DNA from: Escherichia phage vB_EcoM_Lh1B | Sequence record: OK428535.1 | Reading direction: 5' to 3' (one strand) | Length of the DNA: 64,000 nucleotides | In this document: positions 3,398 to 43,349 of the stretch, one piece after another | Layout: each line of letters starts with the position of its first letter | Position numbering within the stretch: the first letter of the stretch is position 1 | Translations under genes and position numbers: made by a program | Notes under the pieces: generated by a model | The model's input: the letters and a program-made list of their open reading frames with translations, nothing else | Database searches by the model: none | What the model was told of the DNA's origin: nothing

Positions 3398-3413
3398 NNT
3401 TAATANTCAATAN

Positions 3414-3426
3414 TGTGATATATAAT
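3414..3426 (+). promoter_or_regulatory. candidate extended -10-like promoter element
   Basis: TGTGATATATAAT about 17 nt upstream of the 3443 start, downstream of a terminator; contains N calls nearby. Confidence 0.3.
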
Positions 3427-3442
3427 CTCNTGGNGAGTTGAA

Positions 3443-4162
3443 ATGACATATCCTAAAATTCTGCCTGTTTTAACGCCCACCGTTGTTGTTGGGACGGACT
3501 TAGAGACCCTGGCTTTACGTCCAGATGCCTACATCTTAACGTTGGCAAACGTGGCATTCGATGTTCCGACAATGAAAATGATCGGTTCATGTTACCACAA
3601 AATCGACCCCAATGATGCAAAAGCAAAAGAAATCTTCTACATCGATCCACAAACGGTCGGTTATTGGGAAGGTAAAGGCGACCCCGAATACGCACCGAGC
3701 GAGAAAGCACGTATTGAAGCGTTTTCTGGGACCACTCCACTGCCAGAAGCACTGTGGGCGGCCAAAAAATGGTTGGATGATCTGGGCAACGTGAAAATGG
3801 TTATCACCATGCGCGGTCCCGATTTCGATGCTCCAATTCTGATGAACGCATTCGCGCAGTGCGATATCCCGCCGGGCAAGTACCGCAAGTTTTCTATATT
3901 GGACTCTGACCGGACTGCAGAACGTATTGCATATGCGTTTGGCCTGGAACCGAACTGGCACGCAGAAGCGCACCATTGGACCCGTGGCAAAGAAGCGTAC
4001 GAGCATAACGCTAGCTTCGATGCTGCGAAGGAAGCGTATTCTACGGCACGCATCTATCATTTGGCCCTGGTCGCGCGTACGTACGGCTTCGAACGCATGT
4101 TAGAAGCCCACCGCGAAATGTGCACAGGTGAATACATTCCACCGCAGTTGCGAGGAGAATAA
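3443..4162 (+). CDS. DnaQ-like DEDDh 3'-5' exonuclease
   Basis: 239 aa; N-terminal VVVGTDLETLA (Exo I D-x-E) and C-terminal HNASFDA (Exo III H-x4-D) in the expected order. Confidence 0.6.
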   Translation: MTYPKILPVLTPTVVVGTDLETLALRPDAYILTLANVAFDVPTMKMIGSCYHKIDPNDAKAKEIFYIDPQTVGYWEGKGDPEYAPSEKARIEAFSGTTPLPEALWAAKKWLDDLGNVKMVITMRGPDFDAPILMNAFAQCDIPPGKYRKFSILDSDRTAERIAYAFGLEPNWHAEAHHWTRGKEAYEHNASFDAAKEAYSTARIYHLALVARTYGFERMLEAHREMCTGEYIPPQLRGE

Positions 4163-7219: not shown

Positions 7220-7591
7220 ATGACGCAAGACGAATTTGAAACGATGGTAAAACAGTATTACAAAGAAGGGACTATTCTGTACATAGTCGCACCCGAGAGC
7301 GAAAACTGGTTGACGTTATCGTCGCGGGTAACCACCCTACGCGGCCCAGTTTCTCAAGAAATAAGACAGATGGCTCGTATAGTTCGAGATACCGCCATCC
7401 AGGGCGGTAAAGTCGTCAGCTTCTCCCACCTCTCTCCGATCGGCCACTCTAACTTAGAAACCGAAGTTGATGTCGTTGCTACTGTTGGTTTTGATTTAGA
7501 TGGCTCTCCAGGCTCGAACCTTGTCGTGATTAAGAAATGGCGTGGATACGATGCAATCCCATCGCCAGGGGTGTGGCCGGCAACCAACTAG
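7220..7591 (+). CDS. hypothetical protein
   Basis: 123-aa ORF with AAGGAG RBS. Confidence 0.55.
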   Translation: MTQDEFETMVKQYYKEGTILYIVAPESENWLTLSSRVTTLRGPVSQEIRQMARIVRDTAIQGGKVVSFSHLSPIGHSNLETEVDVVATVGFDLDGSPGSNLVVIKKWRGYDAIPSPGVWPATN

Positions 7592-7601
7592 AGGGGTCGC
7601 T

Positions 7602-8009
7602 ATGTTAAAGGTGTATAGCGAGTCATTGATGGACTTGCAAGAGTATCTAAAGCATGTGGAAATTAACGGCAACCGTGGAATGATATACTCCATGGTTGTC
7701 GAGATTTTAATTAAAATCGTGCTTGTTTCATTCCACGTAGCAGAAAATGGCACTGCTGTACCAGGAGATGTTTATAAAGGCGTTATTAAGCATCTTAGCG
7801 AGCGCTACAGTTGTTTACGTGAACCGGATATCTTTAATGAGGTGCAGCGTGTTGTGTTGCTTATCCTCGACAACCGTGAAGACTTGGCGTACAAGCTTGC
7901 GCATGAATTGGCAGACACGTCACAGCACGGTGGACAACTGAAATATAACGTTGTGGATCTCGTAGCGTGCAGATACTGGTATACGCAGCCCGAGGTAAGT
8001 AACTTTTAA
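7602..8009 (+). CDS. hypothetical protein
   Basis: In-frame ATG at 7602 with AGGGG SD-like sequence just after the upstream stop; preferred over the overlapping ORF-track start at 7542. Confidence 0.5.
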   Translation: MLKVYSESLMDLQEYLKHVEINGNRGMIYSMVVEILIKIVLVSFHVAENGTAVPGDVYKGVIKHLSERYSCLREPDIFNEVQRVVLLILDNREDLAYKLAHELADTSQHGGQLKYNVVDLVACRYWYTQPEVSNF

Positions 8010-8019
8010 GGAGCATTAG

Positions 8020-8559
8020 ATGCAAATCGTAATTGACTTCGCTCTGTCGGAGTCGAGACGTCAGCTAGATGAAATTCTGTTAGGATTAAAACGTGACGTG
8101 GAATTTGAACTTCACGATGCGTTGGCCGTCCACGAAAATCGTTTGTCTGACGAAATAGGTTCGGGTGTAGATGTGGCTATCTGTGACACTGGGGATATGG
8201 TAAATCAGCTTATTGAACGTATGTTCACGCGGCTGCGTAACATTCTGAACTATCCCCATCGTTTTGAACTGGTAGAAGGGACGGACCAAATCACCGACTT
8301 ATTGAGTGAAGCCTTTGATAAGGTTGGTGAATCTCTGGCGGGGTTACATCAAGAGAACCTGGGCGAGACATATGTTGCTGTGGTCATTAACGGGCAAACG
8401 TCGAACGTTACGGATACGGTAACATGGTCCGATATCGTTGACCAGCCAATCATTGACAAAATCACCAAGCTGTATCNTGAGGCGGAGATGAAGGTGCTGG
8501 CTATCTGTCGTCGCGAACTGCTCTATCTCGGCGAGAAATATGGGAAACCTGTTGAATGA
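8020..8559 (+). CDS. hypothetical protein
   Basis: 179-aa ORF with AAGGAG RBS. Confidence 0.55.
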   Translation: MQIVIDFALSESRRQLDEILLGLKRDVEFELHDALAVHENRLSDEIGSGVDVAICDTGDMVNQLIERMFTRLRNILNYPHRFELVEGTDQITDLLSEAFDKVGESLAGLHQENLGETYVAVVINGQTSNVTDTVTWSDIVDQPIIDKITKLYXEAEMKVLAICRRELLYLGEKYGKPVE

Positions 8560-9098
8560 AAATATTCATTGATTTACTCGATGACGAATTTCGTGAAATA
8601 TTTCCAGCGGCGTTGTTCGAGTTTAAGCGTAAGTGTGAAGACTATCTGATACCGAAGAATATCGATCGTCAACACCTCGCTGGACTTATCTCTGCGGCGT
8701 ACGTCAATATCGCGGTAAATGAAGTTCATCAACTCGCGCAACGTATTGCGTGTTTCGAATACAACGACGAAGACATTGAAGACGGCTTCCTGCAGTCTAA
8801 GATGGGTCGCTTCTCACTCGAACTCAAGACCGATGAGGTTATTGATAAGGTCGGTAAAGCCTTTGATGAAATGAAGGACATCGAAATGATGATTAAGATG
8901 TCTGGACCGGAAGCAGGCCCATTGAAAGAAGCGTGGGAACATCTCAACCGCGACGAGTATAAAGAGATGTACATGGGTGAGTTCACCACCATGCTACGTC
9001 ACCTCGAAGCACAGGTCTGGGAGCATATCGTTTCACGTCTGAAAGAAATACTGATTGTGATTGAGCCAATGCAGCCACTCGCTATTAGTAAATTCTAG
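8556..9098 (+). CDS. hypothetical protein
   Basis: 180-aa ORF; start overlaps upstream stop (ATGA), suggesting translational coupling. Confidence 0.55.
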   Translation: MKIFIDLLDDEFREIFPAALFEFKRKCEDYLIPKNIDRQHLAGLISAAYVNIAVNEVHQLAQRIACFEYNDEDIEDGFLQSKMGRFSLELKTDEVIDKVGKAFDEMKDIEMMIKMSGPEAGPLKEAWEHLNRDEYKEMYMGEFTTMLRHLEAQVWEHIVSRLKEILIVIEPMQPLAISKF

Positions 9099-9102
9099 TT
9101 AA

Positions 9103-9137
9103 ACGGACACTCTTCGGGGTGTCCGTAGTTTTATTTT
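9103..9137 (+). terminator. intrinsic terminator
   Basis: Stem ACGGACAC / GTGTCCGT with TTCG-containing loop, then T-tract. Confidence 0.6.
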
Positions 9138-9149
9138 AATCGACCATTA
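9136..9149 (+). promoter_or_regulatory. conserved upstream element TTAATCGACCATTA
   Basis: Same 14-mer (one variant) found at 46657..46670 and 47536..47549, each 17-19 nt upstream of an ATG with AAGGA(G) RBS between. Confidence 0.3.
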
Positions 9150-9166
9150 ATCTAAAGGAGTATTAA

Positions 9167-10090
9167 ATGGACAGCTTTCTTTTTGATTTGGCAGAATCGG
9201 TAAATGTAGATGTAATCGGTATGCGCGAATCCCCGAGTAATTTCTTAAACGGTCTTACTAAAATCGACGAACGTGTGAAATCCAGAAGTGGAGATCCCGC
9301 CATCATCGAGCAATACGCAATAGCCCATTGTGGCGAGATAGGCCAGCACTTTATACCGATTGAGGCGTTCCTAAAGAACTGCTTCGCCGAAGAATGCACC
9401 GCAGACTTCCTGTCTCTTGCCTACGGCTGGCGATACGGGGGTATCCAAATGGAATTTGATCTTAATATTTTTGAACAAGTTCTACTTGGCGACGTTCTCA
9501 CTGAGATACCACGCAGCTGGATAGACAAGATTCCCGGTTGGGCCGTCTCCTTTTCAGTGTGCTATCGCGCTAAAGATATCGGTATCCAAGAAAAGACTTA
9601 CGTTTTCGGTCGGCGAATGTTTAAAGGGAAAGATTGTTTAACAATGATGATTTTTGGAAAACGTATCGAGGGGGAAACCTTTGAAATCGTGGACGTGGGT
9701 GACGGCTTTGTATCCTTGCGTGTGGCGGAAACTGGTACGCCGGCCAATGAGAAAACGTTACGCATTGTCGGCGCTACCATGTTTACATTCTCACTGATCC
9801 CGCACAACCCTACACCCGTCAAACTGAGACAATTAACTGGAAAGAAACGTATCGCCAATTACCACATTGAACCAAAATCTAAACCGACTGTCCTCTCCAC
9901 CGTAAAAGCACAAAGCGAGTATCTTGAAGAATTTGATACTGATACGGAGAAAAGAACACAAGGTAGCAGATGTGCGCATATGCGTCGTGCACACTGGTGT
10001 ACTTACTGGCTCGGTCCACGTGACGGGAATCGGACAAAGATTTTGAAATGGATACCGCCGACATTTGTCAACGGTTCTAAATGCAAATAA
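9167..10090 (+). CDS. hypothetical protein
   Basis: 307-aa ORF with AAGGAG RBS. Confidence 0.6.
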   Translation: MDSFLFDLAESVNVDVIGMRESPSNFLNGLTKIDERVKSRSGDPAIIEQYAIAHCGEIGQHFIPIEAFLKNCFAEECTADFLSLAYGWRYGGIQMEFDLNIFEQVLLGDVLTEIPRSWIDKIPGWAVSFSVCYRAKDIGIQEKTYVFGRRMFKGKDCLTMMIFGKRIEGETFEIVDVGDGFVSLRVAETGTPANEKTLRIVGATMFTFSLIPHNPTPVKLRQLTGKKRIANYHIEPKSKPTVLSTVKAQSEYLEEFDTDTEKRTQGSRCAHMRRAHWCTYWLGPRDGNRTKILKWIPPTFVNGSKCK

Positions 10091-16452: not shown

Positions 16453-17707
16453 TGGGATTACCAACCAGATAAGCAGCACAACGGGCGCAATAGAGAACAA
16501 AGTTAACGATGTTCAAAACCGTGTCCAGTCAACGATTGGTAATGCCGAGCGCGGTATTGAAAGTGCTCAAAATTTGTACAATAACGTAACCGCCAAAGCA
16601 GGGGAAACTTTCGACAAGATCTCCAACATTGGCAACACGATAAGTGAAAAATTTGGTAACGTGTTCGGGGGCGGCGACCAAGTCACGGTAGGTGGTAAAA
16701 AGGCAGCAGGTTCAGCGGCTTCCGGAGTATCGCCGCCACAACGTGTGCCTACTTTTGCTTCCAACACGAAAGAAGCGCTGCCAGTTATCGATCCACAGAA
16801 GCGCGATGTGTCTGAACCCTTTCAGAAGGTAAACCAGGAAGGGAAAACTGCACTGAGCTATCTCTCACCGGGCGGCGCAGGTAGTCTGTTAAGTAAGGGA
16901 TGGGATACACTGACTGATCTTCGCGATAGTGCTTTAAGCGCGGTCGGGACAGATTATGCGTCAGTGAAAGCTCGCCTGGAGTCCACGATGAACATCGCGG
17001 GACAGCTTGCCAAACTACCTGGTGAGGTACAGCGTGAAATCGGTAACTACGTCGATATGGCCAATAGCGCCAAGTGGCAAGTCACCGCACTGATTGACGA
17101 TGTTACGCACACGTTTGATAGCTTTAAGGACCTGGACGACTTCTTGTCTATCGACGGGATCATTGATAGCTTTACGGGCGGGAGTGGGAATTTCTCCTCG
17201 CTGGATATCAACACCTCGTCTGCGTTGATATACGGTATGTCCACAAAGCTCAATCAATACGGTCTGCCGAATCGCATCGATCCGATGATTCAGGCTATCA
17301 CCGATCCTATTGCACAACAAGCGTTGTACGGCGAACTGATGATACAGGCTGCGGCTGCGGGCAATCTCAATTCTGTTGAGTATTACTTGCCTAAACTACA
17401 GCCAGGTCAAGGTGCTGAGATTGCAGATACTGTTATTCAGAATCTTCTGATGAACCTTAACGTTGAGCCGGGGGTGGGTTACAGCACCTACGGTCAGCGA
17501 CTGTTGACGTTGTTTAATGCGCTTAATCCAAACTGGGATATCTCTAAAACGAATCCTGGAATGGTTGAGCTTAAGCTTTACACGTACGCCAACAGTAATG
17601 CGATTCAAGCACTCCTGACCACCGAGAAACGTCCGTACGTTATCGCCGGTGGTAGTGTCCAATATCAGTCTGCCAGTACGCTGGTGCAGAGCTATTTCGC
17701 CTTGTAA
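16433..17707 (+). CDS. hypothetical protein
   Basis: 424-aa ORF, Gly/Ser-rich middle, overlapping upstream gene end by 20 nt. Confidence 0.55.
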   Translation: MKLNNLDGITNQISSTTGAIENKVNDVQNRVQSTIGNAERGIESAQNLYNNVTAKAGETFDKISNIGNTISEKFGNVFGGGDQVTVGGKKAAGSAASGVSPPQRVPTFASNTKEALPVIDPQKRDVSEPFQKVNQEGKTALSYLSPGGAGSLLSKGWDTLTDLRDSALSAVGTDYASVKARLESTMNIAGQLAKLPGEVQREIGNYVDMANSAKWQVTALIDDVTHTFDSFKDLDDFLSIDGIIDSFTGGSGNFSSLDINTSSALIYGMSTKLNQYGLPNRIDPMIQAITDPIAQQALYGELMIQAAAAGNLNSVEYYLPKLQPGQGAEIADTVIQNLLMNLNVEPGVGYSTYGQRLLTLFNALNPNWDISKTNPGMVELKLYTYANSNAIQALLTTEKRPYVIAGGSVQYQSASTLVQSYFAL

Positions 17708-17716
17708 GGTACCTCT

Positions 17717-22785: not shown

Positions 22786-23553
22786 ATGATGAAGCTCTTT
22801 GCGTTCTCCGATGAATTCTACACAGTGGAATTCGACGACTACGAATACGGGTTATTAGGGGCCGTCGACATGGAAGACGCTAAACGGCAGCTTCCCACTA
22901 GCGAAATAGAAATCATTGAGATTGGGGAAACTAATCTTAGTGGTATTTTGATGCTGGGGCGGCGACCNCGNCCTGNGGAACCNGNGNNGGAAAAANAGNA
23001 AANGNNANNGNTTTTTTTGGTTTTTGAGCCGAAAGACCCCGCAGCGATAGCGAAGGTAGTCGATACGTTACGGCCACAGATTGGCGTCGCGATTGAAAAT
23101 TATCGNTGGGCTCGTTTCTCAGGCGACACGCCGATATTTTCGAATAAGCACTGGTTGTTATGTATCAACAACGACACGATAATGGTACCGTTAACAGGGG
23201 AGAAGAATTTTGAAGATAACTTCGTCCCTGGCGAAGAGTCTGTTATCTTCGAGTATACCCATGTCATCGGAAAGCCGAGCTTCTACCAAGTTCTGATTGA
23301 TGTCTTGACTCACGTCGGTCGAACCATCGAATACCACTACTGGGCACGCCAGGCGCGTTCTAAATGGTTCTCGTTGACGTACGTCGAAGGTTGGGAACGT
23401 GTTGTTGAAAAGATTGACGGGCGCTATGAGCAGATTTGGTTCCTGAACCCGGCTTTCCGTGAAGAATTACCCGCATGGGTAAAAGAAGAGGCGAGCAAGC
23501 TGACGGTTGGCTTTACTAAGCAGGGCGCGCCGTATATGGTTAACTACAAATAA
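22786..23553 (+). CDS. hypothetical protein
   Basis: 255-aa ORF; contains an N-rich homopolymer-like stretch (22968-23011) without frame loss. Confidence 0.55.
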   Translation: MMKLFAFSDEFYTVEFDDYEYGLLGAVDMEDAKRQLPTSEIEIIEIGETNLSGILMLGRRXXPXEXXXEKXXXXXXFLVFEPKDPAAIAKVVDTLRPQIGVAIENYXWARFSGDTPIFSNKHWLLCINNDTIMVPLTGEKNFEDNFVPGEESVIFEYTHVIGKPSFYQVLIDVLTHVGRTIEYHYWARQARSKWFSLTYVEGWERVVEKIDGRYEQIWFLNPAFREELPAWVKEEASKLTVGFTKQGAPYMVNYK

Positions 23554-23564
23554 GGTGAAAACAG

Positions 23565-34500: not shown

Positions 34501-35522
34501 AAGGTGAACGCGCCCTTCTGCAGGCGTTTCATGACCTCTGGATTTTTCTCCATCTCCTCACGAGTCCATTTCTGGAGTTTCTCGATTTGTGGGCCGAGTA
34601 GTTTCTTCGCAAGGAATCCGCTACCCCATGCAGTTGCTTTATCGCGAGCATTTGTTTTGCGACGTTCGGCAGTCAACGAAGAGCTGTCGCTCATGCCGAA
34701 ATCGTCTTCAACACCCATGCCGAGAACAGACTCTAACAAACCACGACCTTCGCCAAATATACCAGAAATTTTCTTCTTGGTATTTTCGCGAATCATGTCC
34801 ATAAACCCGTCAGCATAACGCAANGGGTTCATCCATTCCGCAGCCTGGCGTTTAACGTTTGCCCAACGGACTTCTGAGAAATCTTCCTTCGCGTAGTCTG
34901 GCAGCGCCGTGTTCTTCACGATGGCTTCTAAAGCAGGCGTGTTACGATCGAACTCCGACTGCTTCATCTTCACGATGTCTTGAATGGCGAACAGGGTACG
35001 GTATTGCAATTCGAGTTTCTTACGCTCGATGTTTAAGAATACCCCACGGCTTAACCCGGTTAGCAGGTTAATGTCTTTCGCCATCCCAATCATGGTTTGG
35101 TGCATTGCATCCGCGCGCATCTCTTTGATGCTGTCGCGGAGCTTATCCTCTACCATGCGGTCCTGCAGTTGACGTTGTTCGTCGGCGTCCTTTGGCACGC
35201 CTGAGAAAACGTCGCCCAGTTCACGATCCATCAATGCCTGATTAGGATCGTAATTTTGGTAATCCAACTGGTCAGATTTTGACCACTTGTCGATGCGCTT
35301 AGTAACTGCATCCGGCAAGTATTTCTTCATCGTCGGACCGAGTTGGCGCGCTTGCATCTTCAGCGTGCGCTCGGTCTTCTCAAGCTCCCCTTTCGTATGG
35401 GCGTAAATGTCCTTTGCTGCAGCTGCCGCTGACTGATAACCCTCGTATGCATCAGCTGCCGGCTTAGGCATCCCCTTGAGGATAACTTGGTCGCGTTTCC
35501 CTTCTGGCCAGATAGTTGACAT
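28548..35522 (-). CDS. giant virion protein with lytic transglycosylase (SLT) domain
   Basis: About 2,324 aa from ATG at 35520-35522 (AGGAAG RBS); SLT signature AVALAMAK-x-ESGFNYTAKNPYASASGLFQF at about 29550-29700; Gly-rich linkers, hydrophobic segments and Ala/Pro-rich C-terminal tail. Confidence 0.8.
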   Translation of the reverse strand: MSTIWPEGKRDQVILKGMPKPAADAYEGYQSAAAAAKDIYAHTKGELEKTERTLKMQARQLGPTMKKYLPDAVTKRIDKWSKSDQLDYQNYDPNQALMDRELGDVFSGVPKDADEQRQLQDRMVEDKLRDSIKEMRADAMHQTMIGMAKDINLLTGLSRGVFLNIERKKLELQYRTLFAIQDIVKMKQSEFDRNTPALEAIVKNTALPDYAKEDFSEVRWANVKRQAAEWMNXLRYADGFMDMIRENTKKKISGIFGEGRGLLESVLGMGVEDDFGMSDSSSLTAERRKTNARDKATAWGSGFLAKKLLGPQIEKLQKWTREEMEKNPEVMKRLQKGAFTFGNLSSISNSAIAGETQGPLADLFRVLNELGIVQPLNREKAFLDERNGETLSRSAKFDRKAYLSLVEVIPAWLAEINKSVRRGYGEHADLEYDITSRGFVDRKVVGNRVRKAVANDEQRLRLQNSINSTVDFVDRGKTLSQKDRQHLADYIESRASQGRAFDVEAILKDPMHLHRYMPGNAAERIKEALQGHSDSLLGGSNELSNELARKISTVQSSITQRQAIIDEAVNIYGERALRDAGIFNYDAKSDTFGVDKDLSDPYTLFNDLAMGKTRSGRALTRDQEIQRKLQNGSALGDYLRRMNQGASGGADDTSLXXXLRGGGKGRGMSPRQLAAVLYGKTSTNFVELLSQRNRGEEAPRNNFDGIIEAIRGNNNSDTLQKILEHVRSMDEEGVLLASLAGGAGSGDEEMGPPRPGGGSGGGRRRRIIIGEDGLIRRWGGXLFDTAAGIGGFAKRGVKGAWNKLNQFGGWARGKVAGMGGGEGPGFLTRMRGLISGSVRGGFEAVSSFGKGLLGIRDVYDDHGNVVLQGARLEAGEYYQVIDGKMVQLKTLDDIKLGSDIVDSAGNLVLAAADLAAAGKLRYYKGGKIQALTQGLASKIGLGFNKVAKLPKRFLDFLSPKAGSIVGKIKDWLNEIPEGEEKTRLQKAFNRVTSLPGKVLGFAKRGVDRLKDMXTDNPLTRWWKGRKDGGGGGFSLFSSTGKKTNHILIRIYKLLNQRLPGDPEDESWTEEMEKGVGGGGSTIGRAVRGAYDRAKSSLSERFGGRWSRTKAFFGRGRDXLXGWFSGFRGRAGDMLDGYRGARHDIATRYEVERRLAGRDDDVAEFYRSHLNAKGGLSGRKVYGDAKEDLETARDAAGRVINKGKNAAKSAGARLFERLDRMIGLQEMSWFNTMRESVSRAGGDDGIIRTMFAKFGKRNKPPEGDEKRDYFNFFKXWXXKXKXKKEKXQGSKGKSGGLWDMVKGLPIIGPIVSILGTVGNILGSITKWGVLKPVGLLGKAAWNVGKFAVTRLXAPXVXXVGTGASAVVTAVGWPAILIGXXXXXXGYAXYKIATTTYTQYLDKMRLAQYGFRDYDKWSSDDGAKARYLEDALREYVSYAEDGQASLRGLGGKDVQKLAEGFGINVEEKGEMLAFQAFMLQRFIPIYLRWIXALKSMPNSIQLADVGDAKKVSKEDMQTLFNKMKMTKDAKAFSSLTDPRKVNQGFFSKAWDVVTFTPKEFLSGEEVMEVQNEVXXAIKFRMDDKKXRKYGMAPAVEGIKSAGVDEAINKLGQLDNERNKNLAKVEGWEDGTEQVQIQVDWNAVLDQKDMNAMESVRWKTYGFTTIDNATRTLITVFEKNVIKDIDVKTASYKGDWKKAIASMVPDAIGTPKEDRLKRWFFDRFLPVFMTYLVGVKRYLPTADPLNLKLTGGYLYEISLMMSTAYSLKGGIRQSVWEVNINPLGGDANTNPSSIKAELETLKLLSKEADLAVRNMIKAIKNNGKRARWKDRNKNRSSLEVTGEDEEDSNISSGDSLSSDGARASGYIPSGTSGGVPGNLGQVVDAVGGVRNYAAMTTGSSSINLSEVKDGDYKSLAEKYPIEMLGRKGALNVPNIKALITDAANMMGVPPAVALAMAKXESGFNYTAKNPYASASGLFQFVNGXWDGMMKGXSXKXGXPRVNQXXPXXXXILGVQFIRDNIQKAQRDLGGKAXXPAVAYLYHFLGAGGGKKFLEAWKRNPNMAASSAPGITSAILRGNANVFYSNGRIRSVDGVIQELNRRMGAISANEVAAVPSKTKDMVAGLSPNSPTNPAAAMGAPAANDPSLSXADNLPADNANRRDDALTQKGAMAAQDAMATAAGNVGPAAPXPTTGGTGTSDASTTAETVASQAAAEGLSXTDVAKVKAGAEAQVNAAARPIAAPTSDATASTPTLNGDPIDVQQLKVLIQSRDYLKEIRDILKSNPRAANDTRGGSIQQAANVPPPGSAARRQEITQPTPSLNVSRKAS

Positions 35523-35698
35523 CGCCGACTTCCTGGCAACATTCAGGGTACTGAGTATCGGGCTTCGTTTTTTCTCGTCTTTGGGACGGGGNGGTTCNCC
35601 NAAANCNTCCCANTCGTCGANTNTATCTAAATCNATATCATCNAAACCNTCTTTNCCTCTTTTTGCCNTAANNTTTNTTCCAATTNAGGAGNTTAAAA

Positions 35699-37312
35699 AT
35701 GACAAAGCTAAAATGGGTTNACTTTTACTTGTTAAACNNCAACAAGTCCCTGGTGTCGCATTTAAAACCAGTTACAACAACAGACACCTTTCAGGGACTG
35801 ACGAAAAACTTTCACCCTGAAGGACTGTATTCAACCGAAATTTTTGGCCTCACAGGGAGCGAAGCACGAGACTCAACGTTCTCGTACATTGATATCAAAC
35901 TGGATATCATTTCGCCGACCGTTTGTTTGGCATTGTTCCAGCTGAAACAGCTGTACGAAGAAATCTGTTCCGGGAAGCGATTCGCTATCTGGAATGAGAA
36001 AGAAAAAGATTTCGAGCCGGCTCTGCCCAGTGATAAAGGTGCAGACACCGGCTTCAACTTCTTCCTACGCTACTACGAACAACTGACACCGGGACGCAAC
36101 GAATCGATGCGTCGCGACGAGACAGTCGATTTCTTCAATAAGTTCCGTCCGGTCAGTCTCAGCCGCTATGTGCTGGTTCTGCCTGCGGGATTACGTGATT
36201 TGGTCATTCGTCAGGATGGCCGCGACCAAGAAGAAGAGATTGGCGGACTCTACCGTCGTCTGATTTCTCTGGCGCGTGCAATCCCCGACCGCAGTACGCG
36301 AACGGAACTGACTGACCCGGTTCGCTGGAAGCTCCAACAAACCTTTAATGATATCTGGATGTACTTCTTCAACATCCAGGATGGTAAAGGTGGTTTTGCA
36401 CGTCGTAAAGTGACGTCACGTAAGTTAATGAACGGTACGCGTAACGTACTGTCTTCATTCTCAACCGGTTCCAAGGTCATGGGTCGCGAAGATGCGATTC
36501 GTCCAACGGATACCCGTATCGGTTTGTACCAAACCCTGAAGGCATTACTGCCTGTGGCTCAATACCACATCCGTGAACGTTACCTCAGTAACATCCGGGC
36601 AGGGGACGGCAACTTATACGGCGTTAACACCAAAACACTCAAGCGTGAGTTCCTGGAAGTCTCCGGGCGGGTGTATGACCTTTTCACTACCGACGATGGC
36701 ATCGAAACACTCATCAACAGAATGGAAGCGCGCGAGCTTCGACATAAACCGCTGATGATTGATCCGGACCATTACGTGGCATTAATCTACCAGGACAAAC
36801 GCAGCTTCAAAATCTTTTACGATATTGAAGACCTGCCGGAAGGACGTGACCGCAAGCTTGTCCGCGGACTGAGCTTAGCAGAACTCCTCTATTTGTCAGG
36901 TTACGATATTTGGAATGACTACTTCTCGTTCATCACGCGTTATCCGGTTACGGGACGCGGTTCGACTTACTCCTCGACCATAAGATTGGAGACCACCACC
37001 TCTTCCCTCTATTTGCATGAACTGGAAGACGATTGGGNCACGTTAAAAGANAAGGGNGCAATTNGNTTCCCTGACCGTACCGTGAAAACNTTTGTGGAAT
37101 CCATGGCACCACATCCANCCCNATTAGGGGGNTTGGGNGGNGACNACGANGGNGACACCGGCNCANCAAANAGCCCGATGTCAACCGAAGCGCTCGNGGA
37201 AAATCGGAAGTGGGTCAGTTCGAAAAACTACTGGTTTGCAACAGACGGCAGTTTCAAAATCAATCCGGTTAACAACGTGATTAAAAGAACGACTGCTGCG
37301 CTGTTGAAATGA
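35699..37312 (+). CDS. RNA polymerase beta-prime-like subunit, N-terminal-half homologue
   Basis: 537 aa; ordered blocks VLVLPAGLRDLV, GGLYRRLI, GKGGFARRKVTSRKLMNGTRNVL, ITRYPVTGRGS, K.AI.FP and GGD-x-[D/E]-GDTG (37142..37156) match beta-prime lid/rudder/DPBB/catalytic-loop blocks; AGGAG RBS. Confidence 0.6.
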   Translation: MTKLKWVXFYLLNXNKSLVSHLKPVTTTDTFQGLTKNFHPEGLYSTEIFGLTGSEARDSTFSYIDIKLDIISPTVCLALFQLKQLYEEICSGKRFAIWNEKEKDFEPALPSDKGADTGFNFFLRYYEQLTPGRNESMRRDETVDFFNKFRPVSLSRYVLVLPAGLRDLVIRQDGRDQEEEIGGLYRRLISLARAIPDRSTRTELTDPVRWKLQQTFNDIWMYFFNIQDGKGGFARRKVTSRKLMNGTRNVLSSFSTGSKVMGREDAIRPTDTRIGLYQTLKALLPVAQYHIRERYLSNIRAGDGNLYGVNTKTLKREFLEVSGRVYDLFTTDDGIETLINRMEARELRHKPLMIDPDHYVALIYQDKRSFKIFYDIEDLPEGRDRKLVRGLSLAELLYLSGYDIWNDYFSFITRYPVTGRGSTYSSTIRLETTTSSLYLHELEDDWXTLKXKXAIXFPDRTVKXFVESMAPHPXXLGXLXXDXXXDTGXXXSPMSTEALXENRKWVSSKNYWFATDGSFKINPVNNVIKRTTAALLK

Positions 37313-37330
37313 TACCCATAAGGCACATGT

Positions 37331-40300
37331 ATGATTTTTCTGAAACAGTTTAACCAGCGCTTTACCGTGCGCAAGACCGATGAGTTCGGTCGTCCGCGTA
37401 TTATCCCGCTGGAGAAGCTCCAGCTCCCACGTGGTTCTATCTACCACACCATCGATTTAGACCAGGTGGTTTTAGCACCACCGTTAACTACACCGTNTTT
37501 TGNCCNGGTGGAAAAACCGGCGATGATTCGCCACCACTTCCAGCTGCCTGAAGACGGCATTATTGGCCACCCGCGTAAGAAACCGGTTGTTGGCCAAGAA
37601 CGTCAAATCTTCCAGTACCATCGTAACAATCGTCGTATTCGTCGCATGATTGAAGACGGCGTGGTACGTTCCGATCCGAAAGTGCTGCTCATCGAAAACT
37701 ACACCCCGATGCTGCCGCATTATTTCTACCCTGATACTCTGATGTCCTGGTACGAACGTCTGCACAACATTCAGCTGCTGATAACTAACCAGATGAAAAC
37801 TGACTCACGTGAGTACATGCGTCAGAACTACTACATCATCGAACTGGGTAACGTACTGCCTTCTTTCGATCGTTTTAAAATGACGTATAACGATCGTGTT
37901 AAAACCAAACTGGAGCGCTTTAAAGACTTTAACCTGCTGTGGTTACTGGAGTTGTTCGGTTGGGTGTACGGCGATCAGCAAGCAACACTGTTTGACGGTA
38001 TGGACATGAACCAGCTGTCACGTGTGAACTTTATCTTCACACACAACGGTGGTTTTACATCCATGAACATGGGTGTAATTGAAAGAATGCGTAAGTCTGC
38101 CGGTGGTCGTTTGACTGACGTGCAGATGGGCAGAATGTTCTACCGTACACTGACTACTGTGATGACCACACCGCCGTCTACCGACTACGAAGATGACGAG
38201 TTCGTTACACCGGAAGGGGATGAACGCGTACATCTGGGAGAGGACGACGATGCTGTTGAAACCGTTGCCAGTAAACCGGAAGAAAGCCTCGATATCGTCG
38301 ACGATGAAGCAACACAAAGCGACAACGTTGACGATACATTGAACGATCATGAGTTCGATGAGAAAGAAGATCTGGTCATCGAAGCGCCGAAAGAAGATGT
38401 CAAACCAACCACCATCGTCGTAGAACGCACCATCCCACACGATGCTGTGATTAAACAAGAAGTTGAGCGCCTGGCNGAAGCGGGCCGCGTCACCGCCAAA
38501 GCGTATCAGTTCCTGAACGAATCTTCTAAACGTTTCGTAAACTTACCCAACCCGTACAATCCTAAAGAGACGTACGGCGAAGGTCTGACCATCGATCCGA
38601 AGAAACTCGAAGTTAAAGCCGAGCCTAAGAAGATTGAACGCTTAGTTACGGATGAAGCCTGGGCGGAAAATACCACCGACCAAATCATTCGTCAGTACAA
38701 CCAGGAAATCTTCCCGAAAGATATTCTGGGGGCAGTAGCGTCATCTCAGCGTCTCGGTTTGGCGATTCACAATCACACTGTTNAGAAAGAGATTTCCGTT
38801 ACCGGGAATATCGAACACCACACGTTGCGTATTCAGCCGATTGGCGGAGAACCAACCACGGTACGTTTCTCAATTCCTGCATTAACCGAAGACGGTACTT
38901 GGGTTGCGAATGGTGTGGAATATACAATGCGTCGTCAGCGTGTTGATCTTCCCATCCGTAAAGTGTCCCACGATACTGTAGCGTTAACCACTGCCTACGG
39001 GAAGAACTTTGTCCGTCGCAGTGATAAAGTCGTCAATGATTACGGACGTTGGCTCACTAACGCGATTATTACTCGCGCGGTCGATCCAAAGAACACCGAA
39101 ATCACTGATGCAAAACTGGCGAATGTGTTCGATCCGCTGTCTAAACTGCCGCGTCAGTACACCGAGGTGGCACGTCGTGTAGCAGCATTCAACGCAATTG
39201 GGTACCAATGGAACTTTGACATTAAACAGAAAGCGGCATTCTTTAACGAAGGGCAACTGGCAGATGCGGACCGTGTCGAGCTGGTACCTGTGGCGAAGAA
39301 ACCGCGGAGTCATGTCATCGTCGGTATGGATAAAAACTCCCAGCTTTATCGAGTGGATAAGGATAAGACCGAACCACTGGGTACACTCGCCGAGGTCTTT
39401 GGCGTGGACACCTCTAAGGCTCCACGTGAAATGACCGAACTGTCACTGATGGGCAAATCAATCTCGCTGGGCTTTGTGTTTGCGTACTATCTCGGATTAA
39501 CCGGGATGTTGAAACACTTTGGTATCAGTTACGAGGTTCTCTCTGTCGGACAACGTATCGATAAAGGTCAGTTCGACTCCATTATTCGTCTCCAGGATGC
39601 GAAAATTGCAATTGTCTGCGAGAACGATCAACAGAGGATGATTGTCAACGGCTTAGACCGTTACATTAAACACTTTACCACGTATACCGAGTCGGAAGTT
39701 GACCGGGAAGACATTTACCTGAACCTGTTACGTGATGCAGATGGGCTAACACCACGCTACATCAAAGAGCTGAAACTGATGCGGACCGCATTTGTTGACG
39801 ACATGCACGCGCGTATCCTCAGGAAAATGGGCGAGCCGGNAACCTTTATCGGCTTACTGGAGCGTTCTAACGAACTGCTGCAGACGGACCACACGTTACC
39901 GGAAATTAACGGTGACGAAATGATGTTCATCGGGAACCAACGTATTTCGTATCACATCTACACCGCGATGGTGCGGGCGATGCGTAACTACAACAACGCG
40001 CCTAACTCGAATCGTAAGTTTGAGTTGACGCAGGACATGGTCTGGGGTGCAATTAACTCCGACCCGTCTGTTCTACTGGCTCCTGGTGCAAACCCGGTAC
40101 AGAACATCAAAGAAAAAGATGTTGTTACCATGGGCGGTACAGGTGGTCGTAACCGCAAGACCATGGTCTACAGTACCCGTGAATTCCAACCGAGCGACCT
40201 GGGGATTGTCTCCGGTAACACGGTCGATAACGGCGATGTAGGTATCACCGCCTTTGCAACAAACAATCCGCGTTACGACACCGTGGACGGCACGACCTTT

Positions 40301-41536
40301 AAAAAGGACCTCGATAAACTGAAGCCAGGTGAGGCACTGTCATTTATTGATGGCTTGGTGCCGGATACCCTGATGGACGATGCTAAGCGTCAGAACTTCG
40401 TTGGGATTCAATTCGGTTCTGCGACCAGTTGTGTTGGCGCAACCACCACACCGTATCGTACCGAGCAAGAAAAGTTCGTGGCACACCGTACTTCTGTGAA
40501 GCACGCACGCGTAATCGATAAACCTGGCAAGATTGTGGAGGTTCTTAACGACCACGTTAAAATCAAATACGACGACGGAGAGGAAGAAGCTTTCCCACTG
40601 GGCCGTTGGTTCGGTCCGCACGAAGGGACTTACTACCCACACACCCTGGTAACGAAATGGAAGCGCGGAGATAAACTCCCTGCCGGTGCCGTTATCACGT
40701 ACAACGAACAACACTTTGAACCAGACATCTACGATCCAACGCAGGTCAGTTTTAAAAACGGGATACTGGCAACTGTCGCTTTGATTGAAGGGGAAGAAGT
40801 AATTGAGGACTCCAACGCCATTAGTGAGCGGTTCGCTGCTAAGGCTGAAGCCGATGTTACCAAACTCAAAGAAGTCACAATGACGTTTACCCAGAACCTG
40901 TTGGAGATGGTAAAAGAAGGGGACCACGTAGACGTGGATTCAATTCTATGCACCTTCACCGACAACCTGACCGGCGATATGAGCGGGTTCAGTAAAGAAG
41001 CAGCGGAAACGCTGCGTGAGTTAAGCTCCTTTGCACCACGCTCTGGTGTTCGTGGGTTTATCGACAAAATCGAAGTGGTTTACCACGGCGAGGTGGAAGA
41101 TATGACCCCGTCTTTGGCGGAGATGGTTCGTAAATACGACCGTATACGTCGGAAGACTGCGCTGGCTCTCAAACGTGACGAGCCGAAGGATGGTCGAGTC
41201 AACGGTGATTTTCGTGTTGAGGGGGTGCCGTTAGCGTACAATAGCCTGTGTGTCCGATTCTACATCACACACCGGGTAGAGATGGCAGCAGCGGATAAGA
41301 TGGTTATTGCTAACCAGCTGAAAACGACGGTTCAGGAAGTGATGTATGGAACCAACAAAACGGAAGACGGGCAGGAACTCGACATTATCTTTGGTCGTGA
41401 TTCCGTCGACGCACGTATCGTAGGTTCTATCATGCGCATCGGAACCACCAACGCTGTCGGGTATCGTGGTGGGGAGAATATCGGACGCATCTTAGATGGT
41501 GAAGACGTCCCAGCCTTGCCGGCTAAAATCAACTAA
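37331..41536 (+). CDS. large protein, possible partner RNAP subunit (unconfirmed)
   Basis: 1,401-aa ORF in the same frame as the upstream gene, separated by TGA and TAA; only weak RNAP-like blocks (GAVASSQRLG, VVTMGGTGGRNRKTMV); acidic low-complexity insert. Confidence 0.55.
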   Translation: MIFLKQFNQRFTVRKTDEFGRPRIIPLEKLQLPRGSIYHTIDLDQVVLAPPLTTPXFXXVEKPAMIRHHFQLPEDGIIGHPRKKPVVGQERQIFQYHRNNRRIRRMIEDGVVRSDPKVLLIENYTPMLPHYFYPDTLMSWYERLHNIQLLITNQMKTDSREYMRQNYYIIELGNVLPSFDRFKMTYNDRVKTKLERFKDFNLLWLLELFGWVYGDQQATLFDGMDMNQLSRVNFIFTHNGGFTSMNMGVIERMRKSAGGRLTDVQMGRMFYRTLTTVMTTPPSTDYEDDEFVTPEGDERVHLGEDDDAVETVASKPEESLDIVDDEATQSDNVDDTLNDHEFDEKEDLVIEAPKEDVKPTTIVVERTIPHDAVIKQEVERLXEAGRVTAKAYQFLNESSKRFVNLPNPYNPKETYGEGLTIDPKKLEVKAEPKKIERLVTDEAWAENTTDQIIRQYNQEIFPKDILGAVASSQRLGLAIHNHTVXKEISVTGNIEHHTLRIQPIGGEPTTVRFSIPALTEDGTWVANGVEYTMRRQRVDLPIRKVSHDTVALTTAYGKNFVRRSDKVVNDYGRWLTNAIITRAVDPKNTEITDAKLANVFDPLSKLPRQYTEVARRVAAFNAIGYQWNFDIKQKAAFFNEGQLADADRVELVPVAKKPRSHVIVGMDKNSQLYRVDKDKTEPLGTLAEVFGVDTSKAPREMTELSLMGKSISLGFVFAYYLGLTGMLKHFGISYEVLSVGQRIDKGQFDSIIRLQDAKIAIVCENDQQRMIVNGLDRYIKHFTTYTESEVDREDIYLNLLRDADGLTPRYIKELKLMRTAFVDDMHARILRKMGEPXTFIGLLERSNELLQTDHTLPEINGDEMMFIGNQRISYHIYTAMVRAMRNYNNAPNSNRKFELTQDMVWGAINSDPSVLLAPGANPVQNIKEKDVVTMGGTGGRNRKTMVYSTREFQPSDLGIVSGNTVDNGDVGITAFATNNPRYDTVDGTTFKKDLDKLKPGEALSFIDGLVPDTLMDDAKRQNFVGIQFGSATSCVGATTTPYRTEQEKFVAHRTSVKHARVIDKPGKIVEVLNDHVKIKYDDGEEEAFPLGRWFGPHEGTYYPHTLVTKWKRGDKLPAGAVITYNEQHFEPDIYDPTQVSFKNGILATVALIEGEEVIEDSNAISERFAAKAEADVTKLKEVTMTFTQNLLEMVKEGDHVDVDSILCTFTDNLTGDMSGFSKEAAETLRELSSFAPRSGVRGFIDKIEVVYHGEVEDMTPSLAEMVRKYDRIRRKTALALKRDEPKDGRVNGDFRVEGVPLAYNSLCVRFYITHRVEMAAADKMVIANQLKTTVQEVMYGTNKTEDGQELDIIFGRDSVDARIVGSIMRIGTTNAVGYRGGENIGRILDGEDVPALPAKIN

Positions 41537-41583
41537 TGTAGGGCGGGTCGCTCCCGCCCGGTAAATAAACTCCGGAGTTAATA

Positions 41584-41877
41584 ATGGGAATTTTAGATAC
41601 GCTCAAGCAGCAGCATGGGATTCCGGTGGGTCGTAATAGCACGAATCCGGAAACGGAAGGTTATTCCCCACAGCAACGCATGAACTTTGTTGTTCTGGGC
41701 AATGCGGTTGAATTGGCCACCGAAATTATTCACGGACTGCTGAAGGGCAGCAATGGCCTGTCTGACCGCATGGGCGATCAGCGTTTGCTGAAACGAGACA
41801 TCGCTGATATGGTGGGTGCGCGTATTACTGGTCGCATCCAGGATTCTATCAGCACCAAAAACGGGGGTCAGGCATGA
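41584..41877 (+). CDS. hypothetical protein
   Basis: 97-aa ORF. Confidence 0.45.
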   Translation: MGILDTLKQQHGIPVGRNSTNPETEGYSPQQRMNFVVLGNAVELATEIIHGLLKGSNGLSDRMGDQRLLKRDIADMVGARITGRIQDSISTKNGGQA

Positions 41878-43349
41878 TCAACTTATATTCACTTAATGCT
41901 GTCACCAACGCAATGAAACTGGCGAAACAACACCAGGTTCGTTTGGAAGCTGACGTTGACAGTCCTGTTGGTCTACTGACAAAAGCGACTACGCAGCAGA
42001 GCGTTTTCGATACGCAGATAACTGACGAAGAGTTCTTCCAGTCTCTGCCGGATATCACTGCACTGAAAACACCACAATCTGGCACGGGCGAAGCGTCTGT
42101 AATCGCAGATACTGCAGCGGGTCCAGAAACGCTGAACGTCGAAGACCACGAACCGACACTGTTCGAACTGAAACGTATGGCTATCCAACGTTGTCAGGGT
42201 ATGCTTGACTTTGCCCGTAACGTTATTCAGCCGTTTGTTCAACTGGTTATCCAAAACAACCAGGGTATTGAAAACCNGGCNGTTNGNGAANAATGGGNAC
42301 TTGTGCCTGCAGGTATGGACCCGGCGTTGAACTCCCCGGTGGTACAGGCATTAATTGATTCGGTAGAAAACCCGCTGGGCAATGGTACTACGCACCCTGC
42401 AGTTAAAGCCAACGTCCCTGCTGATATCGAACTGCCAGAAACCGGCAGCAAAGCTTACGACGATCTGGTTAAAGAACTGTTGAATGCGCTGGGTTGGAAT
42501 ATCAACGAAGCCGTTCGCAACATGCTCGAAGGGAACATGCTCTCTCCGGTAAGCGACCAGGCACCACACAACCTGAAACGCAACATTCTGTTTATGCTNC
42601 TTTCTGGCTNCTACCTGGAAATGCCGTGGAAAGACTCTGGTCTGAATAGCGGGCAGTGGAAAGCACAGATGCTGCCGTTGCATTACAGCTATATCGGTTG
42701 GGTTTACGCCTACACCCAGAACATCGTTACCCGCATCAAGACCGGTAACATTGTCTTCGGATACGACAACGTTGAGAAGAAAGTGTATATCTGTCAGGAA
42801 GTGATGGACGACTATCTGGAAAAAGGCGGTAGCGTTGAAGCGTTACTGGGCGCTATCTACCAGCTGGACGAAGGTGACACCAATGTCTCCACGCGTGTAG
42901 CTTCACTGTTGGAAAAACAGAAAGACTACATCGCTGCCTGGGGCCACCGTTCTGCGATTCAGCGTGCTAAGCTCGACAGCAGTTGGGTAACACGCAATCG
43001 CCAGTCACTGAAACAAGCGTTTAACGTGGCTATCGATGCGACCGATCCTGAACTGTTCTGGCGTGGACAGGACGGTCAGGTAGCAACGCCGGAGTTCGTT
43101 AAGAAATCAACGGCAAGCTTCATCGATTCGTTCTTCACCACCGACACCACAGACATCACTGAGTTCGTTATCAAGGTCTCCGCGACTGAGGTCTTCGGTG
43201 AATACGAACTGTCCAAGCTGATGCTGGATATTCATCGTGGTATGATTGCTAACCGTCAACCTGACGAGGTGGCAACCGACTGGATGATTAACTACGTCCT
43301 GGATTGGATTTGTGGCGGTGTGGTTATTTCTGTACCGAGCAAAGTTTAA
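41874..43349 (+). CDS. hypothetical protein
   Basis: 491-aa ORF; ATGA overlap with upstream gene. Confidence 0.55.
   Translation: MINLYSLNAVTNAMKLAKQHQVRLEADVDSPVGLLTKATTQQSVFDTQITDEEFFQSLPDITALKTPQSGTGEASVIADTAAGPETLNVEDHEPTLFELKRMAIQRCQGMLDFARNVIQPFVQLVIQNNQGIENXXVXEXWXLVPAGMDPALNSPVVQALIDSVENPLGNGTTHPAVKANVPADIELPETGSKAYDDLVKELLNALGWNINEAVRNMLEGNMLSPVSDQAPHNLKRNILFMXLSGXYLEMPWKDSGLNSGQWKAQMLPLHYSYIGWVYAYTQNIVTRIKTGNIVFGYDNVEKKVYICQEVMDDYLEKGGSVEALLGAIYQLDEGDTNVSTRVASLLEKQKDYIAAWGHRSAIQRAKLDSSWVTRNRQSLKQAFNVAIDATDPELFWRGQDGQVATPEFVKKSTASFIDSFFTTDTTDITEFVIKVSATEVFGEYELSKLMLDIHRGMIANRQPDEVATDWMINYVLDWICGGVVISVPSKV

Follow-up and report, generated by a model that had tools for sequence, protein, structure and literature searches.

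The stretch of DNA analysed here, referred to as the window, comprises 64,000 nucleotides of Escherichia phage vB_EcoM_Lh1B (OK428535.1). On its plus strand lie two long open reading frames (ORFs) that resemble genes for RNA polymerase subunits. Direct reading of the sequence places the upstream ORF at 35699..37312 (537 aa) and the downstream ORF at 37331..41536 (1401 aa), and both occupy the same reading frame, as positions 35699 and 37331 are each 2 mod 3. A Shine-Dalgarno sequence, AGGAG, is found at 35687..35691 (AGGAGnTTAAAAATG), 7 nt 5' of the upstream ATG, and the upstream gene closes with a TGA stop codon at 37310..37312. This is followed by an 18-nt intercistronic spacer at 37313..37330 (tacccaTAAGGcacatgt), which, taken codon by codon, reads tac cca TAA ggc aca tgt before the ATG at 37331. 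The TAA at 37319-37321 provides a second in-frame stop, and it is also the beginning of a TAAGG motif at 37319..37323, considered below as the Shine-Dalgarno sequence of the downstream gene.

The original prediction had described two ORFs in one frame, 18 nt apart and separated by in-frame stops at 37310 and 37319, and each of these features was verified by direct reading. It had further noted N-rich sequence roughly 110 nt upstream. This patch is real and consists of 18 single-base Ns between 37038 and 37197, all of them ambiguous base calls that leave the length unchanged. They span 113-272 nt upstream of the TGA, while the junction itself is free of Ns. Across the whole window there are 247 Ns in 225 runs, the longest of which is at most 3.

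Identity of the two genes

The upstream ORF matches PHROG 2986 over its full length (E=7e-226; residues 5-536 on profile positions 4-538 of 539) and aligns without gaps to gp240 of Salmonella phage SPN3US, previously assigned as the N-terminal portion of the virion RNA polymerase (vRNAP) β′ subunit (Thomas et al. 2016, PMC5105663). Neither ORF matched any Pfam family at E<=0.01, and phmmer searches of PDB sequences with single-sequence queries returned no match. As single-sequence searches were insufficient, profiles of the gp240 family (A1) and the gp241 family (A2) were built from the loci of relatives. The PDB matches of A1 are β′ chains only, and include the AR9 nvRNAP β′ subunit (7s01_d, 1.2e-20), the catalytic region of bacterial β′ (about 3e-11) and, among the better matches, plastid and cyanobacterial RpoC1/γ chains (8qma_T, 8xzv_C, 8w9z_C). 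Profile positions 467-527 align with the NADFDGD region of bacterial β′, the AR9 β′ motif is aligned likewise, and residues D482, D484, G485 and D486 are invariant in the A1 alignment. In the window, the codons of this catalytic Asp-x-Asp-Gly-Asp motif occupy 37142..37156 on the plus strand (DYDGD in SPN3US, residues 482-486). Here Ns at 37145, 37150 and 37153 leave two of the five motif codons masked, and the translation reads GGDXXGDTG. These matches identify the upstream ORF, as judged from sequence, as the gene for the β′ N-terminal fragment of a phiKZ-like jumbo phage virion RNA polymerase, carrying the catalytic DxDGD motif and orthologous to SPN3US gp240 and phiKZ gp180.

The downstream ORF matches PHROG 3148 (E=0 over residues 1-1391), and the PDB matches of A2 are β chains only (for example 1iw7_C at 3.8e-10). 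The conserved N-terminus of the family, M(I/L)..KQFNQRF, begins at the ATG at 37331. By the same kind of evidence, this ORF is assigned as the larger, N-terminal fragment of β in the phiKZ-like virion polymerase, and as the orthologue of SPN3US gp241 and phiKZ gp178. The window is thereby classified as an SPN3US-like Salmonella jumbo phage (Seoulvirus) and the two ORFs as its gp240 and gp241. Their lengths (537 and 1401 aa) equal those in SPN3US, the 18-nt spacer is the same base for base, and an ungapped comparison over 5838 nt gives 120 non-N mismatches and no indels. In contrast to SPN3US, the start codon here is ATG rather than GTG, the first residues differ slightly, and ambiguous bases are present; these are allelic differences. 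The length of gp240 is given as 519 aa in the published study (PMC5105663), as opposed to 537 aa in RefSeq and in the window.

In SPN3US, gp240 and gp241 were each detected in virions by mass spectrometry, reported as spectral counts per protein and not as a search for junction peptides. The virion-associated gp241 is essential, as judged from the amber mutant 241(am11), and the remaining pieces of β and β′ (gp42, gp218 and gp244) are encoded elsewhere in the genome (PMC5105663). The two-gene arrangement is therefore already known, since the published proteomics and amber mutant treat gp240 and gp241 as separate proteins. The original prediction had offered a genuine split subunit arrangement as one possibility. 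The genes are genuine and there are two of them, but they are not halves of one subunit: one encodes β′ N and the other β N. Because the ORFs are homologues of different cellular subunits, joining them would restore no single ancestral gene, and their sequences indicate descent from different ancestral subunits rather than from one gene that was split. Accordingly, the proper annotation of the locus is two CDSs, one for the β′ N and one for the β N fragment, and neither a pseudogene nor “beta subunit” twice. The outcome confirms an SPN3US-like genome with intact genes for two virion RNA polymerase subunits, and its importance extends little beyond annotation hygiene.

The junction in related phages

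The 120 nt around the junction are 100% identical in 10 records, which represent nine distinct phage genomes from various laboratories and hosts (SPN3US, SEGD1, EC001, Proteus phage 7, MET_P1_082_240, SPLA1a/3/5c and 1252). In 12 further records a single base differs across this segment, and both stops are found in at least 22 other records. Given this identity in 10 records and near identity in 12 more, both stops are real sequence. In the genera Seoulvirus, Erskinevirus, Machinavirus and Wellingtonvirus the locus is annotated as two genes, which was verified; the upstream gene there always has 537 codons, followed by TGA, TAA or TAG, and the spacer measures 9, 15, 18, 19, 20 or 21 nt. More distant phages also carry two genes, with spacers of 58 nt in pVa-21, 16 in FBKp24, 11 in RAY, 7 in PhiEaH1, 3 in Goslar and 2 in both RP31 and phiKZ. 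In EL the genes share a 4-nt ATGA overlap, where the junction reads GAG GTA TGA and overlaps the ATG. In JM-2012, AR9 and a Staphylococcus phage the genes for β′ N and β N are not linked. All relatives examined, down to about 33% protein identity, carry two genes. Among 1.84 billion proteins, the best 150 representatives of 819 clusters of gp240 homologues range from 456 to 854 aa, and gp241-like sequence is absent from all 150 of them; the eight longer homologues (674-854 aa) were checked and have no gp241-like extension.

The reading frame is shared at the junctions of Seoulvirus, Erskinevirus, the ChrisDB-like and Wellington-like phages, and Goslar. It differs in Machina (20-nt spacer), Caitlin (19 nt), pVa-21, PhiEaH1, RAY, RP31, FBKp24, phiKZ and EL, and because it is lost in these phages the shared frame is without significance. 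From base composition, the probability of a common frame is 1/3 and that of at least one more in-frame stop within six spacer codons is 0.26, which gives a joint chance of about 0.09 per gene pair. Within the window, 11 of 30 closely spaced ORF pairs on the same strand also share a frame. The combination of same frame and extra stop is thus no commoner than chance, and the shared frame is a coincidence. Since the type of stop, the length of the spacer (-4 to 58 nt) and the relative frame all vary, there is no conserved product of fusion or readthrough.

The second stop is likewise accounted for by the signal in which it lies. TAAGG makes up the 5' portion of the consensus Shine-Dalgarno sequence UAAGGAGG and is placed 7 nt ahead of the downstream ATG. 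It is kept at the junction in 13 of 13 close relatives, across differing spacers and frames, and in Wellington and pEa_SNUABM_11 its TAA itself serves as the stop codon of the upstream gene. The motif also serves as a Shine-Dalgarno sequence elsewhere in the window and is enriched at a distance of 4-10 nt 5' of ORF starts. It occurs 80 times in the window, and in 11 cases (10 on the plus strand, the junction included) it precedes the ATG with which an ORF no shorter than 80 aa begins, a rate of 14% as compared with 1-9% for control pentamers. To describe the site as only a weak AAGG, as had been done, understates it: the motif is TAAGG, and this Shine-Dalgarno sequence is not weak. An in-frame second stop can thus be merely the UAA of a UAAGG Shine-Dalgarno sequence, a pattern met more than once in the phage, by which those who read sequence only could be misled.

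Alternative readings of the shared frame

The arrangement is almost certainly that of two separate, intact and adjacent SPN3US-like jumbo phage genes for a virion-packaged multisubunit RNA polymerase, with a coincidental frame and no fusion protein. The other possibility raised originally, that of a single long gene broken in this isolate or by an error of assembly or base calling, perhaps tied to the N-rich stretch, draws on the common frame, the 18-nt distance and the ambiguous bases upstream of the TGA. The probability of this is close to nil. The junction is N-free and identical in nine distinct genomes, the N patch requires no indel relative to SPN3US, and the two ORFs match different cellular subunits. 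Moreover, two genes were found in every relative, and no homologue of fusion length occurs among the best 150 of the 819 clusters. With both stops present in many independently sequenced genomes and related phages showing two genes at this position, the disrupted-gene proposal is refuted by the standard that the original prediction had itself set, and its counterpart, two genuine genes, is upheld.

Two further explanations accept both genes and differ in what they make of the spacer. One supposes that programmed recoding, by readthrough of the double stop or by frameshifting, yields a minor β′-N/β-N fusion beside the separate proteins; the junction of a hypothetical double-readthrough product would read …TTAALLK-X-YP-X-GTCMIFLKQFNQR… (…AALLK-X-YP-X-GTCMIFLK…). 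Among stop codons, UGA is the one most prone to leak in enterobacteria, and the frame is shared in the five groups named above. Readthrough of two stops would nevertheless be required, TGA and then TAA-G, and UAA followed by G is a strong termination context. Neither the frame relation nor the identity of the stop codon is kept among relatives, the in-frame fraction is near the one-third expected by chance and resembles that of other gene pairs in the window, and folding of a 100-nt junction RNA predicts no stimulatory structure (MFE z=0.54 versus shuffles). Recoding of this kind is highly improbable, if marginally less so than a broken gene, and even a trace of fusion protein through double readthrough is very unlikely. 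The other explanation is that the spacer marks a scar left when a mobile element, for instance a group I intron encoding a homing endonuclease, was lost from between or within the genes. It takes its appeal from phiKZ, EL and Goslar, in which a group I intron, confirmed by Rfam, lies together with an HNH ORF between the annotated β′ N and β N genes. These introns are not at the junction but inside β′ N, at DxDGD, about 50 codons before the stop, and the short exon 2 that follows ends 2 nt (phiKZ) or 3 nt (Goslar) before the β N start, or overlaps it by 4 nt (EL). The SPN3US-type gene, by comparison, is colinear through the motif; no intron remnant is visible, and the spacing of stop, Shine-Dalgarno sequence and start accounts for all 18 nt. 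Such a scar may be dismissed with virtually the same assurance as a disrupted gene. An Rfam scan of 35000-42000 gave as its sole match a Glutamine-II riboswitch at 36924-36984 (score 17.4 bits, gathering threshold 33, E=0.91), which was taken as chance.

Expression of the gene pair and comparison with other polymerase loci

For the favoured arrangement of two intact genes, translation of the first would terminate at the TGA at 37310, and ribosomes would initiate the second at the ATG at 37331 by means of UAAGG, the Shine-Dalgarno sequence 7 nt before it. That the TAA of this motif is in frame with the upstream gene is happenstance. The geometry is that of coupled cistrons: the genes are on the same strand, the spacer is 18 nt, and the downstream TAAGG is near the end of the upstream gene. 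Of the 14 linked junction types that were compared, 13 have a very tight junction, of -4 to 21 nt, and from this geometry we infer that the two genes are co-transcribed and probably also translationally coupled. Scans for sigma-70 promoters and intrinsic terminators found none at the junction, with counts at the level of shuffled sequences, and a hairpin in the 58-nt spacer of pVa-21 fails the criteria for a terminator. The tight, reversed-order junction seen from EL and phiKZ to SPN3US could tentatively be ascribed to obligatory translational coupling or to co-translational assembly of the catalytic fragments, though this is doubtful. Coupling is not obligatory in that pVa-21 has a spacer of 58 nt and the genes are not linked at all in three phages.

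The locus resembles that of Pseudomonas phage phiKZ, where gp180 and gp178 share about 33% protein identity with gp240 and gp241, occur in the same order downstream of a divergent giant tail-associated lysin gene (phiKZ gp181), and meet at a tight stop/start junction. It differs from phiKZ, EL and Goslar in being free of the group I intron and HNH ORF (phiKZ gp179) that interrupt their β′ N gene at the catalytic motif. The view that phiKZ gp179, EL ORF185 and Goslar gp206 are independent genes separating the polymerase genes was rejected. The insertion instead lies inside the β′ N gene, as shown by the Rfam group I intron, the HNH domains and a short, unannotated exon 2, coding for FDGDT…, that ends right at the β N start.

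In bacteria, rpoB and rpoC form an operon, and they are naturally fused in Helicobacter and Wolbachia. As in the bacterial operon, the phage genes are adjacent and co-oriented, encode portions of the two catalytic RNA polymerase subunits, and are separated by a short intergenic region. Their order, however, is reversed, the β′ fragment preceding the β fragment, and both subunits are further fragmented. Unlike the loci of Helicobacter and Wolbachia, no fused form is found among the best 150 of the 819 gp240-homologue clusters. In the rpoC1/rpoC2 genes of cyanobacteria and plastids and in the archaeal A′/A″ subunits, too, an N-terminal β′ polypeptide terminates beyond the catalytic Asp motif. 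There the following gene supplies the remainder of β′, whereas here it encodes β, and thus the junction does not divide a single subunit.

Junction geometry and the second stop codon

Two virion RNA polymerase (vRNAP) genes lie in succession on the plus strand: gp240 (35699..37312; 537 codons), with its TGA stop at 37310-37312, and gp241 (37331..41536; 1401 codons), which starts with ATG at 37331. The 18-nt spacer between them (37313-37330), tac cca TAA ggc aca tgt, carries an in-frame TAA at 37319-37321, referred to here as the second stop. Both ORFs begin at positions that are 2 mod 3 and so share a reading frame, and the original prediction described the ORFs, the TGA and the TAA accurately, as direct reading of the sequence confirms. 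The N-rich stretch that it placed nearby consists of 18 isolated Ns from 37038 to 37197, with no Ns within the junction itself. Given the base composition of the window, the probability of a stop is 0.049 per random triplet, and a further stop is expected in 26% of six-codon spacers; combined with a shared frame (1/3), the joint probability is ~9% per gene pair. Eleven of 30 same-strand ORF pairs lying close together in the window likewise share a frame. The combination of shared frame and second stop at gp240/gp241 is not beyond chance. Structure in the 100-nt junction RNA did not exceed that of shuffled controls (z=0.54), and an Rfam scan of 35000-42000 returned no credible match.

The original prediction had weighed a genuine split subunit arrangement against a single gene disrupted in this isolate or its assembly. 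A 2-kb query across the junction retrieved 33 SPN3US-like jumbo phages (Seoulvirus) of Salmonella, Escherichia and Proteus at 95-99% identity, and a further 29 records at 71-79% (27 Erwinia phages, SPAsTU and pSal-SNUABM-04). RefSeq annotates SPN3US (NC_027402) with a separate CDS for each ORF, the lengths and the 18-nt spacer being identical to those of the window. Over 120 nt centred on the junction, 10 records show 100% identity; as SPN3US is entered twice, they represent nine distinct genomes (SPN3US, SEGD1, EC001, Proteus phage 7, MET_P1_082_240, SPLA1a, SPLA3, SPLA5c and phage 1252). A single base differs in each of 12 additional records. The nine genomes were sequenced independently by various groups and come from various hosts and countries. 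Both stops are real, and because they are common to many independent genomes, the finding that the original prediction itself had named as a refutation, the idea of a disrupted gene or assembly artefact is refuted. Joining gp240 to gp241 would, moreover, restore no ancestral gene, since the two derive from different subunits.

Descent of the two polymerase fragments

The two proteins belong, over their full lengths, to distinct RNAP families in PHROGs, 2986 (gp240) and 3148 (gp241). Family alignments built from fetched loci served as profile queries in a search of PDB sequences. Matches of the gp240 profile were confined to beta-prime chains, including those of the AR9 non-virion RNAP (7s01_d, E=1.2e-20) and of bacteria, whose NADFDGD catalytic region aligns to profile positions 467-527. 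The gp241 profile matched beta chains only, among them that of Thermus (1iw7_C, E=3.8e-10; regions 533-656 and 821-880). These matches agree with the assignment of gp240 as the beta-prime N fragment and gp241 as the beta N fragment, the latter with a ~400-residue N-terminal domain without cellular counterpart (Thomas et al. 2016; PMC5105663), and together they establish different descent. The remaining polymerase pieces, gp42, gp218 and gp244, are encoded at other genome sites; gp240 and gp241 were each detected separately by mass spectrometry of virions, and the amber mutant 241(am11) showed gp241 to be essential and required for incorporation of the other subunits (PMC5105663). Earlier work had already described the two-gene arrangement in SPN3US and related phages; the original observation is confirmed but ordinary. 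The phage order, beta-prime fragment then beta, is opposite to that of cellular rpoB-rpoC.

Over the segment 35699-35752 (SPN3US fetched locus 3400-3453), gp240 begins with ATG, MTKLKWV…, in the window and with GTG, VRKLNWV…, in SPN3US. The protein is listed as 519 aa in PMC5105663 and is 537 aa in RefSeq and the window; its start was apparently annotated differently over time.

A phmmer search with gp240 of the window against 1.84 billion cluster representatives gave 819 matches. The best 150 of these span 456-854 aa (median 541), and among them the extensions of the eight representatives exceeding 600 aa held no gp241 similarity (all E>0.2). These eight (P0016, P0020, P0022, P0038, P0060, P0069, P0103 and P0114; 674-854 aa) are extended C-terminally, except for P0060, which is extended N-terminally. 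The P0103 extension could continue into further beta-prime sequence, giving a less fragmented beta-prime.

Junction variation and the TAAGG motif

Thirteen close genomes from four genera (Seoulvirus, Erskinevirus, Machinavirus and Wellingtonvirus) were compared. The gp240 homologue has 537 codons in all 13, followed by TGA, TAA or TAG and a spacer of 9, 15, 18, 19, 20 or 21 nt; Machina, with a 20-nt spacer, and Caitlin, with one of 19 nt, lack the shared frame. Farther afield, the junction measures 58 nt in pVa-21, 16 nt in FBKp24, 11 nt in RAY, 7 nt in PhiEaH1, 3 nt in Goslar, 2 nt in both RP31 and phiKZ, and is a 4-nt ATGA overlap in EL. No gp241 homologue follows the gp240 homologue in JM-2012, AR9 or a Staphylococcus jumbo phage. 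Because stop, spacer and frame vary and the genes are unlinked in some phages, conservation of a fusion or readthrough product is excluded. Within the unusually long pVa-21 spacer (fetched locus 7615-7672) lies a perfect hairpin, AGGTGTCCC tgtta GGGACACCT, which the terminator scan did not class as a terminator; one of its arms is matched by the RAY spacer (fetched locus 7552-7562), TAAGGTGTCCC.

The pentamer TAAGG, the 5' portion of the Shine-Dalgarno consensus UAAGGAGG, is kept at 13 of 13 close junctions and lies 7 nt upstream of the gp241 ATG. Its TAA doubles as the stop of the gp240 homologue in Wellington and pEa_SNUABM_11, and is the second stop in SPN3US-like phages. Within the window, 11 of 80 TAAGG occurrences (14%, versus 1-9% for control pentamers) fall 4-10 nt before the ATG of an ORF of at least 80 aa. 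The conservation of TAAGG at junctions and its use as a Shine-Dalgarno sequence in the window identify the second stop as a by-product of the ribosome-binding site. In three cases (8007-8011, 17705-17709 and 23551-23555) TAAGG begins with the preceding ORF's TAA stop and the next ATG lies 7-9 nt on, the layout of the Wellington-type gp240/gp241 junction.

Comparison thus shows two intact genes with real stops, a conserved Shine-Dalgarno sequence and a non-conserved frame. A scan found no promoter-like or terminator-like sites at the junction, which suggests that gp240 and gp241 are co-transcribed. Of the 14 linked junction types, 13 measure between -4 and 21 nt, which points to probable translational coupling of gp241 to gp240; such coupling would help to balance the output of two fragments that must be assembled into a single enzyme ahead of packaging.

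Introns, the divergent lysin gene and ambiguous bases

In phiKZ, EL and Goslar, an additional ORF (gp179, ORF185 and gp206, respectively) lies between the annotated homologues. These were rejected as intergenic genes, as each carries HNH_3 domains of HNH endonucleases and is directly followed by an Rfam RF00028 group I intron match (92, 51 and 68 bits). In public annotations, gp180, ORF184 and gp205 are closed by a stop codon within the intron (fetched loci: phiKZ 8441-9880, EL 7450-9210, Goslar about 7450-9470), the annotated beta-prime N ending at …LGAD (phiKZ) and …LGGD (Goslar). An unannotated exon 2 of ~60-70 codons lies 3' of the intron core, with FDGDTVS… and a tail homologous to the gp240 C-terminus. 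The intron, which carries the HNH endonuclease ORF, thus interrupts beta-prime N exactly at the catalytic DxDGD motif, in contrast to the SPN3US-like window, which is without it. Exon 2 runs up to the beta N start, and the close stop/start spacing is thus kept in these phages too. The intron is partly covered by existing literature: introns in vRNAP subunits are marked in Fig. 7 of PMC5105663, and a prediction of 2002 is cited in PMC10914365, where long-read RNA-seq did not detect splicing under that study's conditions.

Upstream, just 29 nt (35670-35698) separate the gp240 start from that of the divergent, minus-strand gene for the giant tail-associated lysin (2385 aa; gp239 orthologue, SLT domain), so both promoters must sit either within the coding sequence of the adjacent gene or at a large distance upstream. 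phiKZ (gp181/gp180) and most relatives share this divergent pair.

Across the whole window, 247 Ns fall into 225 runs, none exceeding 3 bases, that are clustered in patches. An ungapped alignment to SPN3US over 5838 nt has 120 non-N mismatches and requires no indels, and thus the Ns conceal no frame changes; the patches are a base-calling quality issue, not biology. Ns at 37142-37156 mask two codons of the gp240 catalytic DYDGD motif. Another, at 35667-35669, masks the middle base of the lysin start codon (CAT to CNT on the plus strand), and an ORF finder consequently extends the lysin gene to TTG at 35705, in apparent overlap with gp240.
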